Virus record (IMG/VR): IMGVR_UViG_2671180357_000004
Location: 1-25,327 of that record
Reading direction: 5' to 3' (one strand)
Source: a virus
Taxonomy: Duplodnaviria > Heunggongvirae > Uroviricota > Caudoviricetes
DNA: 25,327 nucleotides
A program made the translations under genes and the position numbers. Shown here piece after piece: positions 7,184-21,830 of this stretch (its first letter is position 1; the number at the start of each line of letters is the position of its first letter). Under the pieces are notes generated by a model. The model saw nothing but the letters and a program-made list of their open reading frames with translations. It was not told where the DNA came from and made no database searches.

Positions 7184-7206
7184 TAGTAGGTAAATACTTA
7201 CTTATC
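7184..7206. repeat. AT-rich dyad motif, copy A (TAGTAGGTAAATACTTACTTATC)
   Basis: Overlaps the RNase H stop codon; member of an 8-copy intergenic motif family. Confidence 0.5.
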
Positions 7207-7806
7207 TTTTTGTGACAAAAACCCAATGTCATGCTTGTGAGGCATATCAGCTGCGGAATAGGCGGCGATCTTCGCCAGACGGTCACACATTTCGTTCTCG
7301 CGATGACCTGCATGGCCTTTAACCCACTTCCAGCGGACATTATGACGACTGGCGGCCGCGTCGAGACGTTTCCAGAGATCCACGTTTTTGACTGGCTTCT
7401 TCTCAGACGTGATCCATCCGTTACGCTTCCAGCCTTTCATCCAGAGCGTCATGCCGTTTTTAAGATACTGGCTGTCGGAATGCAGGATCACGTTGCAGGG
7501 GTACTTCAGACGCTCCAGCGCAATCAGGGCGCCCATCATCTCCATCCGATTGTTGGTCGTGCTGTGGAAGCCCTCAGAAAGCTCGCGCTCTTCGCCTCGA
7601 TACTGGAGAACGATGCCGTAACCGCCCGGCCCGCCCGGATTTTTGAGGCAGGAGCCATCACTGAATACTTTTACGGTTTTGAGCTGGGGATTGAACTCGA
7701 CTACGGGTGTGTTGAAATTGGTACGGGAATGCTGGTGGGTTTGGCATCTGGCTTTAGACTTCGTGCGGCAGCCAGTGCGTTGCCGGACTGGGTTCTTGGT
7801 CGTCAT
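7198..7806 (-). CDS. rnhA: Ribonuclease HI
   Basis: [63 protein letters not shown] align to E. coli RnhA with a roughly 35-aa N-terminal extension; ATG at 7804-7806 with GGAG upstream. Confidence 0.85.
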
Positions 7807-7848
7807 TTTGGCTCCAGAATCGTGCGCCGCGACGATTTTTTTTTCCCT

Positions 7849-7874
7849 CGCGCGTGTGCGCACGCGTGCGTGTA
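7849..7874. repeat. 26-nt perfectly alternating pyrimidine-purine tract (CGCGCGTGTGCGCACGCGTGCGTGTA), Z-DNA-prone; contains palindrome CGCACGCGTGCG
   Basis: Direct reading; preceded by T9 (7836-7844) and followed by an A/T-rich stretch. Confidence 0.7.
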
Positions 7875-8382
7875 AATATTAAAAATTTTTTAGAAAAGAA
7901 AAATTACTTCCCAGAACAGGTTTTAATAAAACCTGAACTGAACGAACGAAGTGAGTGAAGTTCACCTCGAACGAAGTGAGAGGTTGTCTTTTCAGGTAAT
8001 ACTCTCCCAGGGAGGTGAGTACAAAATTTCCTCACCAACCTGGTCGTTTCATAACCTGAAAAGTTATGACCTAAGTCTACTGCCAGCTTAGGCTTGGGAA
8101 GTTATGGATGACAGCACCCCAGAACCGAGATCTTCCCACACTTTATGAAGGGGAGTACTGGATTCAACCTCTCGAAACACTCCAGACTCGACAATCATAA
8201 AGTGACCCTTCTCTCTGCCCACTTTGGTTCCCCCTTCCCCAACCCCTAAACGGTGCCGGTTCTACGCTGGTAGTGAGCTTTTTTAAACCTGACGCCAGTG
8301 ACGCTATCCCCCACCCATCAGGTCGAGCTGCCGAAAGTATCCGGAAGCGGATAGATTGTATCACTGGTTAGTGGCGTTTTGA
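7875..8382. other. Roughly 510-bp non-coding region dense in short hairpins and direct repeats (candidate structured RNA, origin or packaging-related site)
   Basis: No convincing ORF. Inverted repeats CAGGTTTTA-ATA-AAACCTG, GTGAA-G-TTCAC, CTCCC-A-GGGAG, GGTGAG..CTCACC, CATAAC..GTTATG; direct repeat CGAACGAAGTGAG x2. Confidence 0.4.
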
Positions 8383-8401
8383 ATGGTAAGTACTTACCTA
8401 T
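8383..8401. repeat. AT-rich dyad motif, copy B (ATGGTAAGTACTTACCTAT; 14-bp perfect palindrome GGTAAGTACTTACC)
   Basis: Immediately 3' of the stop of the 8401..8631 gene. Confidence 0.55.
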
Positions 8402-20380: not shown

Positions 20381-20568
20381 ATAACACCTCTGATATCGTG
20401 TGTTAACTTTTGACCATCTTTCAATCTGAACTCCGTATGCGCGGGGAAGGATCTGCGATTCAATAAGCCTTTTCTGGTTAGCCTTCCAAGATAAAACGCT
20501 ACGGGATTTCCTCCTGAAGGGTATGGCTTGTGAAACATAACCGTCTGGCCTTTTTGAAGTTTTTTCAT
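20377..20568 (-). CDS. Small hypothetical protein (63 aa) translationally coupled to sbcC
   Basis: ATG MKKLQKG; stop TGA overlaps the sbcC ATG (ATGA). Confidence 0.4.
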   Translation of the reverse strand: MKKLQKGQTVMFHKPYPSGGNPVAFYLGRLTRKGLLNRRSFPAHTEFRLKDGQKLTHDIRGVI

Positions 20569-20609
20569 CACGATGGCAAACTCTCGAAAGCTCCCATAAT
20601 AACTTTGCC

Positions 20610-21695
20610 TCACACAGCCTCCGCACTCTCTGCTTCGGTCAAGATCTCCTGACACAGTATGTCCAGCTTGCTCAGGTCGAAGCCGCCGTCAGTGTCGTGA
20701 ACGATCTTGCAGTACGCCGCAACGGACTCGCCCAGGCTGTCAATCTTGCTGGTCTCCGCAGTACTGGCAGCGCCTTCCATCATCGATGCCTTGCGAATGA
20801 AGTTGCAGACGACACCCTTCGCGCCCATTGTTTTCAGGACGTTCTGAAGTTTGATGCCTTCTTCATCGCTCTCAACAACGGCACGGAAGCGCACGTAGTT
20901 ACCGCGAATCTGATCGTCATCTACATCGTCCTCAAGGTTCACGAATTTAGGTGCCGAGGTTTCGTGGTGAGTGAATGAGCCGTCCGGTTTGACGATCATG
21001 AAGCCGGCCAGTGAACCAACATCCCCCCAATTCTGGTGTGTCAGCGCCCCGATACTTACCACTCCAGGCAGCACTTCTTTGTGGTTGTGGTAGTGCCCGG
21101 ACAACAATAAACGGAAGCCGATATCTTTCAGTTCCTGTGCGTCGATGCCGACATCGGGCATAGTGGGGATCGCTTTGTTGATTGAGGTATGTACAACAAC
21201 ATCATGGTTGTCACCATCCAGCCCGGAACGCAGCGTTTTGAGATCGCTGATAAGTTCTGCGTGGTTATTACGCCAGCTAATCAGATGGACGGTTACGTCG
21301 CCCATTTTGATGGAATGAGGACGTTTGCCGCAGACGATTTCCACACCGATTGAGCGCAGAGAGGCTGCTGCATTGGCGCTGTATACGGAATCGTTGGTTT
21401 CGAGGTCGTGGTTGCCAGCCAGCATTACCACCTTGAGACCCAACTCTTTGATGATCCACTCGTAAGTTTCGGTCACGAAATGCAGAACGGAAGGTGATAT
21501 AGCACCGCGAACATGGAAGGTATCACCAGCTACCAGCATGTGCTTACAGCCAGCAGCTTTCATCGCTTTGGCCGCCTCCTTCGTAGCGTCCAGTTGGATC
21601 TCCAGCCGAGAGTTAAGCCCGTCAGCGTTTGTTGTCGCAAAAGCATCCCAACGATGATAATGGGGATCTGATATTACCCCGTATGGCAATGTCAT
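20610..21695 (-). CDS. sbcD: SbcD/Mre11-like nuclease (calcineurin-like phosphoesterase)
   Basis: ISDPHYH, VAGDTFH, LAGNHD, SGHYHNH motifs; SD AAGGAAAAG. Confidence 0.85.
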   Translation of the reverse strand: MTLPYGVISDPHYHRWDAFATTNADGLNSRLEIQLDATKEAAKAMKAAGCKHMLVAGDTFHVRGAISPSVLHFVTETYEWIIKELGLKVVMLAGNHDLETNDSVYSANAAASLRSIGVEIVCGKRPHSIKMGDVTVHLISWRNNHAELISDLKTLRSGLDGDNHDVVVHTSINKAIPTMPDVGIDAQELKDIGFRLLLSGHYHNHKEVLPGVVSIGALTHQNWGDVGSLAGFMIVKPDGSFTHHETSAPKFVNLEDDVDDDQIRGNYVRFRAVVESDEEGIKLQNVLKTMGAKGVVCNFIRKASMMEGAASTAETSKIDSLGESVAAYCKIVHDTDGGFDLSKLDILCQEILTEAESAEAV

Positions 21696-21810
21696 GTGTC
21701 TTTTCCTTTGTGGTTATTTTGATACAAATTCTAAGCGTGCATAAGAGGCGTACAACTCATACAACACGGCACACAAAAGAATATAAAGGCACATGATAAT
21801 GATAAAAAAA

Positions 21811-21830
21811 TAAGTAAGTAAATACCTATC
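21811..21830. repeat. AT-rich dyad motif, copy H (TAAGTAAGTAAATACCTATC)
   Basis: In the 396-bp spacer upstream of the sbcD-like start. Confidence 0.4.

Follow-up and report, generated by a model that had tools for sequence, protein, structure and literature searches.

A dispersed 20-bp palindrome at the gene junctions of SSU5/pHCM2-type phage-plasmids, a candidate operator for lytic genes

The stoperators of Cluster A mycobacteriophages, which are read by repressors of the L5 gp71 type, lack symmetry, depend on orientation and are recognized by a two-domain protein acting as a monomer (PMC9283540), and the specificities of site and repressor co-evolve between lineages (PMC9283540, PMC6550527). 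The late promoters of phage P1 carry a 9-bp inverted repeat, ACAAGTGACTT, followed by N4 and then TANNNT (PMC10695390). Here we describe a repeated AT-rich dyad in a 25,327-nucleotide (nt) stretch of viral DNA (IMG/VR record IMGVR_UViG_2671180357_000004; the whole stretch is called the window hereafter) and compare it with these systems and with the C1 operators of P1. By megablast, the window was assigned to an SSU5/pHCM2-type phage-plasmid of Escherichia coli. Salmonella phage SSU5 matched a 10-kb query at 95.7% identity and 87% coverage, E. coli plasmid NZ_CP122497.1 was 98.9% identical across 93% of the window length, and 1593 plasmids in PLSDB matched the window, Salmonella and Yersinia plasmids included. 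No description of the motif or of lysogeny regulation in SSU5-type elements was found in the searchable literature.

The first-pass annotation of the window had reported eight copies of the dyad, and the repeated motif proved to be real and far above chance in the window. With up to 3 mismatches allowed, the core GGTAAGTACTTACC matched 8 times against 0.43 expected, a count reached in none of 100 shuffles, and the 20-mer ATAGGTAAGTACTTACCTAT matched 6 times against 0.00 expected, with not a single match in 100 shuffles. Seven of the eight core matches were reported copies, and the eighth (2340-2353) lay inside hsdR. Sites were then scored with a symmetric position weight matrix, for which 0.17 matches per window are expected under the null at 10 bits or more. 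Copies A, B, D, E, G and H scored 26-32 bits, F scored 14 bits and C scored 11 bits. The reported set therefore stood for six strong copies, whose positions as 20-mers were correct to within 1-2 nt, while F was weak and C was marginal; C was not counted as a member because it is located in the loop of a terminator hairpin after dam, and it probably lies outside the operator set. All eight copies fell outside gene bodies or on a stop codon, as judged from the open reading frames (ORFs) of the window and the annotation of NZ_CP122497.1. Copy B is a perfect 14-bp palindrome, CTTACCTAT is common to copies B, D and G, and both the terminator hairpins named beside several copies and the placement of copies directly before the Dam-like and thyA genes were reproduced (Table 1). 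A weak motif-like match at 2337-2356 in the hsdR coding sequence (13.9 bits) is probably due to chance.

The genome-wide scan proposed in the first-pass annotation likewise found the motif well above expectation on the complete plasmid NZ_CP122497.1 and its relatives. The plasmid held ~23 sites of at least 10 bits against 0.71 expected (0.17 expected at 13 bits or more), and 20 of the 23 curated sites were outside annotated coding sequences (CDS), though 84% of the plasmid is coding. Sites were found in the gap between terL and the portal gene, within the portal gene at its 3' end (the scaffold gene follows 100 nt further on), and after the major capsid gene, with further sites preceding the major tail, tail L, tail fibre, holin and replication genes. 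They occupied early and late modules, all in co-directional lytic gene blocks, and several overlapped stop codons or stood 10-17 nt from start codons; the scan placed no site in any of the fimbrial, restriction-modification or toxin-antitoxin cargo. Phage Cyrano (~25 sites) and Klebsiella phage pJN2-26 (~28 sites) showed the same consensus at the same junctions as NZ_CP122497.1, with Cyrano and pJN2-26 DNA only ~76% identical, and copies were also present in SSU5 and one Yersinia pestis plasmid. Across 19 orthologous junctions, the 20-mer was 86% identical pairwise, compared with 49-53% for adjacent 20-nt blocks (p ~1e-4), which points to purifying selection on the motif.

Three lineage variants of the motif were distinguished. 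The two halves read ATAGGTAAGT and ACTTACCTAT in G1, ATAGGTAGTT and AACTACCTAT in G2 (Enterobacter pCP102), and ATAGGTATTT and AAATACYTAT in G3 (Moellerella, Xenorhabdus and an IMG/VR contig, L085). The inner half-site is AAGT, AGTT or ATTT by lineage, and all copies shift together, with the outer arms ATARGTA...TACYTAT kept in distant relatives whose portal proteins are 68-80% identical. This concerted change at the inner positions suggests a trans-acting reader that is encoded on the element and whose specificity has drifted. The copy inside the portal gene matches the variant of its own lineage, and the peptides encoded there are ENKSVLTYD, ENSLSTTYD and DNRYVNTYD, which would be a plain example of protein sequence under constraint from a regulatory site.

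Both halves of the 20-bp dyad matched the half-site ATARGTAAGT. In a set of 48 sites, 266 complementary pairs were observed between the halves against 265.5 expected from independent half-sites (p=0.49), and A-C and A-A mismatches between the halves were frequent. The flanks were mirror-symmetric as well (A at -3 and T at 23, R at -1 and Y at 21), extending the dyad to ~26 bp. Predicted RNA hairpins had stems of 5-8 bp, free energies (dG) of -1.8 to -8 kcal/mol and z-scores that were mostly not significant, and a search of Rfam gave no match to the motif. Because the halves vary independently and the hairpins are weak, a dimeric DNA-binding reader is favoured over one that recognizes RNA, and the simplest such reader is likely a symmetric dimer on double-stranded DNA. 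The motif is AT-rich and has no T-run, unlike the GC-rich hairpin and U-tract of an intrinsic terminator; real terminators adjoin some copies, and only copy C is inside one. Of the two half-sites, the one lying upstream with respect to gene direction was somewhat better conserved (32 vs 13 sites), and this may reflect Shine-Dalgarno or -10 signals overlapping the downstream half.

Promoter overlap was scored as the best TTGACA and TATAAT pair with 16-18 bp spacing overlapping each site, out of 12, and the reverse strand served as an internal control, the palindrome's own promoter-likeness being equal on both strands. Pairs of at least 9/12 were found at 31 of 94 sites in gene orientation and at 3 of 94 in reverse, and pairs of at least 8/12 at 57 and 20 sites, respectively (n=94, p=4e-6). 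A first look across the sites gave no fixed -10 or -35, and three registers recurred, in which the -10 began at position 18 or 21 of the site or immediately before it. Registers 18 and 21 place the site in the 17-bp spacer, and the upstream -10 places it at ~+1. The near-consensus sigma-70 pair TTGAAA-17-TATGAT surrounded the in-portal copy in four full genomes spanning G1-G2, the G3-type in-portal loci read TTGATA-17-TATGAT by eye, and TTGATA-17-TAyCAT stood after the RuvC-like gene (copy G) in four genomes. A downstream -10 in a fixed register was rejected: TAnnnT occurred at 18-23 in 50% of sites, but the T at 23 is mirrored by the A at -3 and so belongs to the palindrome. Among the roles that had been suggested for the motif, a regulator binding site at phage promoters agrees with these results, as a conserved dyad, under purifying selection, lies on sigma-70-like promoters in the gene direction. 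A phage-specific promoter does not, since the hexamers are ordinary sigma-70 hexamers in three registers and neither a phage RNA polymerase nor a dedicated factor was identified. Since well-formed sigma-70 promoters with a 17-bp spacer can do without an activator, and since a variable register is typical of repressor operators such as those of P1 and not of an activator site in fixed register, we prefer repression over activation.

The explanation that we favour, and hold to be somewhat more probable than its negation, is that the motif is an operator for the element's own repressor, which silences lytic genes in the plasmid-prophage state. A dimeric regulator encoded by the element would read the 20-bp palindrome (up to 26 bp with its flanks) at ~25 copies across the co-directional arrays for packaging, head, tail, lysis, replication and nucleotide metabolism. 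A third to half of the copies would lie on ordinary sigma-70 promoters firing in the gene direction, where the site would fill the 17-bp spacer (-10 from position 18 or 21) or cover the transcription start and the bound protein would occlude RNA polymerase. Copies without hexamers that stand 10-17 nt before start codons (terL/portal, dam, thyA) could serve as roadblocks or auxiliary sites, much as stoperators do. Through such occlusion of RNA polymerase, the copies would form a dispersed network that silences many lytic transcription units while the element lives as a plasmid.

Conserved candidates for the reader were a ~128-aa XRE/helix-turn-helix (HTH) protein, an 88-aa protein encoded before terS, two ParB_N proteins, a FljA-family protein and Ant/Rha. 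We infer that the most likely binder is the ~128-aa XRE/CI-type HTH protein, and the reader probably belongs to the Cro/CI HTH class. The XRE gene, a homologue of CYRAN_45, lies outside the window next to the integrase gene, with which it converges; it diverges from a 70-aa gene. In an LF82 lysogen, expression of CYRAN_45, termed a 'putative repressor', exceeded the prophage background 10-fold, and the lytic genes were silent (PMC9928086). A variant of the motif, ATCRGTAAGYACTTACCAnA, was found 28 bp upstream of the XRE start in all relatives, with a second, weaker copy at ~65 bp. A dyad conserved by sequence rather than by pairing, together with an HTH gene that has a site at its own promoter, is in keeping with operators of the XRE/Cro/CI class.

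In a model of the XRE protein with a predicted local distance difference test score of 75, the N-terminal 65-70 residues took the Cro/CI/C-protein HTH fold, with a root-mean-square deviation of 1.8-2.0 Å to 434 Cro and C.AhdI, and also matched the folds of lambda cI-N, SinR and Stl. The protein matched phrog_8 (1e-11) and was the most diverged candidate between lineages, with 40% identity between G1 and G2. Its predicted recognition helix was NNLSLIKSGK at 68 and NILSLIKKGR at 8 of the 76 parsed G1 loci, NNLSNIKTGR in G2 and NNISMIKSGK in G3, so that the L/N/M position tracks the inner half-site, in three lineages only and with other proteins diverging too. In Denitromonas and Azoarcus, a 16-bp palindrome directly precedes the gene of a distant XRE homologue, and a genome scan yielded a few distant homologues with one palindrome upstream of the gene and no dispersed copies. 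In a large search with the XRE protein, the long contigs (~100-116 kb) and names of homologues indicated SSU5-type elements, with the context checked for a minority.

Two observations concern the neighbourhood of this gene. A LexA-box-like CTGT-N8-ACAG is located ~45 nt upstream of the integrase gene (NZ_CP122497.1 48849-48864, Cyrano 41046, pJN2-26 88948), and the integrase and XRE repressor genes, which converge, overlap at the 3' end of the former; transcription driven by the SOS response could thus extend antisense into the repressor gene. A second LexA-like box precedes an S24/HumD-like gene outside the window, and no LexA boxes were found within the window. The Ant/Rha product is a possible inducer that would inactivate the repressor.

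Several points weigh against an operator network read by the XRE protein. The -35 elements are on average of poor quality and at most sites unconvincing, and hexamers are lacking at the copies with the strongest consensus (at terL/portal, and at dam in some genomes). Three junctions, conserved across four genomes, have the site followed at 5-14 nt by a terminator hairpin, namely those after the RuvC-like gene (16767-16816), the capsid gene and the tail M gene, a layout that a simple operator model leaves unexplained; transcripts begun at the overlapping promoter would start within the 5' arm of the hairpin and might escape termination, although this is speculation. A single repressor acting on early and late genes leaves temporal control unexplained as well, and repression rather than activation is inferred from promoter geometry. 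Orthologous sites of related genomes are non-independent, so the p-values given here are optimistic. As for the binder, the fold matches of the XRE protein carry weak E-values, its Pfam HTH_19 match of 19.7 bits is below the gathering score of 30.2, the correlation between helix and motif comes from just three lineages, and XRE proteins that are 60-67% identical share the same motif. The 88-aa protein before terS, the two ParB_N proteins and the FljA-like protein are other conserved candidates.

Activation in place of repression is considered unlikely. The palindrome would then bind a phage-encoded activator that replaces the -35, in the way of Lpa at the late promoters of P1, 11 in number, and promoters would be switched on. 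P1 late promoters share the AAGT/ACTT core with the motif, but tblastn found no Lpa homologue in two relatives. With the -10 at position 18 or 21, the palindrome would be centred near -20 or -23, as might suit an activator; the -10 register is variable, however, with three classes that include a site at +1. The poor mean quality of the -35 is in line with activation, yet many copies have a good -35 at 17-bp spacing (TTGAAA, TTGATA, TTGTAA) and would need no activator. The better conserved upstream half-site (32 vs 13 sites) also speaks for an activator, whereas the strongest copies are 10-17 nt from start codons, leaving no space for a Shine-Dalgarno leader, and a copy also precedes the putative repressor gene.

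We consider it distinctly unlikely that the ~25 sites nucleate spreading in the way of KorB or stoperators, by a clamp-like or oligomerising protein (the ParB_N pair, or a roadblocking XRE protein). If this were true, both initiation and elongation would be shut across a 100-kb element in a Gram-negative phage-plasmid, and the inner half-site of each lineage (AAGT, AGTT, ATTT) would mark out the immunity groups of SSU5-, pHCM2- and pMT1-type plasmids.

Little credence is given to the copies being parS- or OB-like loading sites, at which one or both ParB_N proteins would load, clamp and slide to silence, compact, package or partition the element. KorB of plasmid RK2 has ~12 dispersed 13-bp palindromes, which provides a precedent. 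Two conserved ParB_N genes are located just upstream of the packaging genes, and a motif copy precedes the first of them in Cyrano, Klebsiella and Enterobacter, but both proteins had the ParB_N domain only, with no HTH domain detected. The ParB_N proteins, with 74-92% identity across lineages, change little between lineages whose motifs differ; an orientation-specific overlap with sigma-70 promoters would be unexpected of pure loading sites, and a separate ParA-type partition module is present on the element.

A role in RNA is very improbable. Here a transcribed hairpin would serve as an RNase III site, stabilise mRNA or form the operator of an RNA-binding translational repressor, with the FljA-like protein as a candidate. 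Several copies end 10-17 nt before start codons, beside the Shine-Dalgarno sequence, but many others are distant from start codons or just before a terminator, and the lack of excess complementarity and the A-C and A-A mismatches in many copies are against a selected stem. The RNase III-type processing hairpin proposed in the first-pass annotation was rejected on these grounds: an RNase III substrate would be a double-stranded stem of about two turns with compensatory change, and the weak folds of the motif, with no counterpart in Rfam, fall far short of it. FljA-like proteins block translation of fliC mRNA (PMC2652032), and a FljA-family protein is conserved on these elements, but the 5' untranslated region of E. 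coli fliC has no similar dyad, and a FljA-like protein with a fliC-like RNA target was rejected as the reader. The FljA-family protein ('repressor of phase-1 flagellin'; PF03614, E=1e-80) is full-length and is encoded at 104576-105103 (-) in NZ_CP122497.1 and as CYRAN_114 in Cyrano; it is kept in four Enterobacteriaceae genomes, a more divergent homologue was aligned in Moellerella, and its gene is possibly a moron by which translation of host flagellin is shut off.

The probability is negligible that the copies are chance AT-rich similarity, or targets of the window's HNH endonuclease (10791-11813), which had been called AP2-like: the copies do lie in AT-rich intergenic DNA and the ORF is in the window, but shuffled sequences gave no 20-mer match, chance is refuted by conservation at orthologous junctions at ~76% nucleotide identity, no AP2 domain was detected among nine window ORFs scanned, and the five motif-keeping relatives have no such ORF. 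This strain-variable ORF (340 aa) had an HNH_2 domain only and is on the plus strand, flanked by two core genes of the minus strand. Its product was rejected as the binder for its lone HNH_2 domain and the lack of the ORF in relatives. NZ_CP122497.1, Cyrano, pJN2-26, pCP102 and pW1-b have no such ORF, so it is probably a free-standing homing endonuclease insertion.

The window copies and their surroundings are listed in Table 1. The genes at ~4.7-22.7 kb are on the minus strand and encode Ant/Rha, RNase H, Dam, a 3'-5' exonuclease, DHFR, ThyA, and MazG-like, RuvC-like and SbcCD proteins.

Table 1 Motif copies, promoter-like hexamer pairs, terminators and neighbouring genes. Positions are those of the window unless another sequence is named.
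Feature	Coordinates	Strand	Details
Copy A	7186..7205		ATAAGTAAGTATTTACCTAC in minus-strand gene orientation; overlaps rnhA stop codon; orthologous sites at pl 81398, Cyrano 79651, Klebsiella 16842
Copy A promoter-like pair	AAGATA 7208..7203, TATAAT 7185..7180	-	17 bp; site in spacer
Copy B	8382..8401		ATAGGTAAGTACTTACCATT in gene orientation; overlaps stop codon of 76-aa gene 8401..8631 (-)
Copy B best promoter-like pair	TTGAAT 8379..8384, TATATT 8402..8407	+	17 bp; antisense to genes
Copy C	8768..8787		best register, 11 bits; apical loop of terminator hairpin downstream of dam
Copy D	9440..9459		best site of the window, 32 bits; ends 12 nt before dam start codon (9427)
Copy D upstream weak pair	TTGCTA 9486..9481, AAAAAT 9463..9458		17 bp; site at ~+1; TTGCCA-17-AAAAAT in relatives
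Terminator upstream of copy D	9496..9535	-	dG -25.6; order terminator, promoter/operator, dam
Copy E	15522..15541		~17 nt upstream of thyA start
Copy E pair	CTGACA 15566..15561, TAATAT 15543..15538	-	17 bp; site at transcription start
Intrinsic terminator between copies F and E	15598..15621	-
Copy F	15672..15691		weak, degenerate, 14 bits; overlaps stop codon of MazG-like gene
Copy F pair	TTGTAA 15693..15688, TATATT 15670..15665	-	17 bp; site in spacer
Copy G	16797..16816		11 nt past stop codon of RuvC-like gene
Copy G pair	TTGATA 16819..16814, TACCAT 16796..16791	-	17 bp; site in spacer
Terminator hairpin after copy G	16790..16767		begins within 1 nt of copy G -10; layout kept in four genomes
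Copy H	21810..21829		114 nt upstream of sbcD-like gene
Copy H pair	TTTACT 21822..21817, TATCAT 21798..21793	-	18 bp; site overlaps -35
In-portal operator copy, L002 (NZ_CP122497.1)	7028-7047
In-portal operator copy, L074	11467-11486
In-portal operator copy, L085	11475-11494
RepA	23479-24534	+	from window annotation/ORFs
hsdR	left end of window		from window annotation/ORFs
Ant/Rha-type anti-repressor gene	5435..6250	-	SSU5_093 annotated 'anti-repressor Ant'

At copy B (8379-8407) the sole good pair is antisense, and the orthologous Cyrano site likewise scores best in reverse; the pair could give an antisense or regulatory transcript. The hairpin that holds copy C, at 8741-8814 (-) after dam, is long and AT-rich (dG -23.6) and is followed by TTTTT. 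Its arms are GC-clamped, CTGCTTC(C/T)GTATATA ... TATATACAG(A/C)(A/C)GCAGG, and near-identical arms occur at two places in Cyrano (OV696614.1), 31175 and 78099. It has the look of a recurring terminator cassette with a loop similar to the operator motif.

Phage-plasmids of the SSU5/pHCM2 type abound in Enterobacteriaceae, and resistance genes have been reported on phage-plasmids in published surveys. An easily recognised operator would provide a map of the lytic transcription units, the operator set would lead to a candidate master repressor, and the operator sequence could be used to sort elements into probable immunity groups; it would also offer testable handles for curing or inducing such plasmids. 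We regard the importance as moderate, resting mainly on how widespread SSU5-type plasmids are.

The proposed network was compared with four described kinds of site. Like the C1 operators of P1, it belongs to a plasmid prophage with many copies of one operator over ~100 kb, and in both cases the sites take variable registers on sigma-70 lytic promoters (in the P1 annotation, within the spacer, -35, -10 or downstream) and one or more stand at the gene of the repressor, here the putative one. The number of dispersed copies exceeds 10 (~23-28 per genome), and the promoter overlap (31/94 vs 3/94) falls in three registers. The P1 operators, however, are asymmetric 17-mers, whereas the motif here is a 20-bp palindrome with a small XRE/Cro-type HTH protein as its candidate binder; tblastn with P1 C1 found no homologue in two relatives. 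P1 late genes are separately controlled by Lpa, whereas here one motif occurs in early and late modules. Lpa promoters and the sites have in common a short inverted repeat with the core AAGT/ACTT, a position ~20-23 bp before the start, an adjacent TANNNT and repetition ahead of many operons, but the P1 repeat has 9 bp at a fixed N4 with no -35, while the motif here has 20 bp, a variable register and often a -35. P1-like Lpa promoters or C1 operators were rejected after this comparison of late promoters and negative tblastn searches for Lpa and C1 in the two relatives.

In Cro/CI and C-protein systems, too, a five-helix HTH domain reads palindromic operators as a dimer, but there 2-6 operators are clustered at one switch region, compared with ~25 dispersed copies here. 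With stoperators, the sites share their numbers (dozens genome-wide), very short intergenic gaps, presence in early and late arms, and contact with start and stop codons; 20 of the 23 curated sites were outside CDS, and both modules were represented. They differ from stoperators in being a dyad with mirror-symmetric flanks rather than an asymmetric site, in their Gram-negative host, and in that many copies lie on promoters and not inside transcription units. Together, these comparisons suggest a network that departs from both P1 C1 operators and Cluster A stoperators at the level of the site sequence, while resembling both in its layout.

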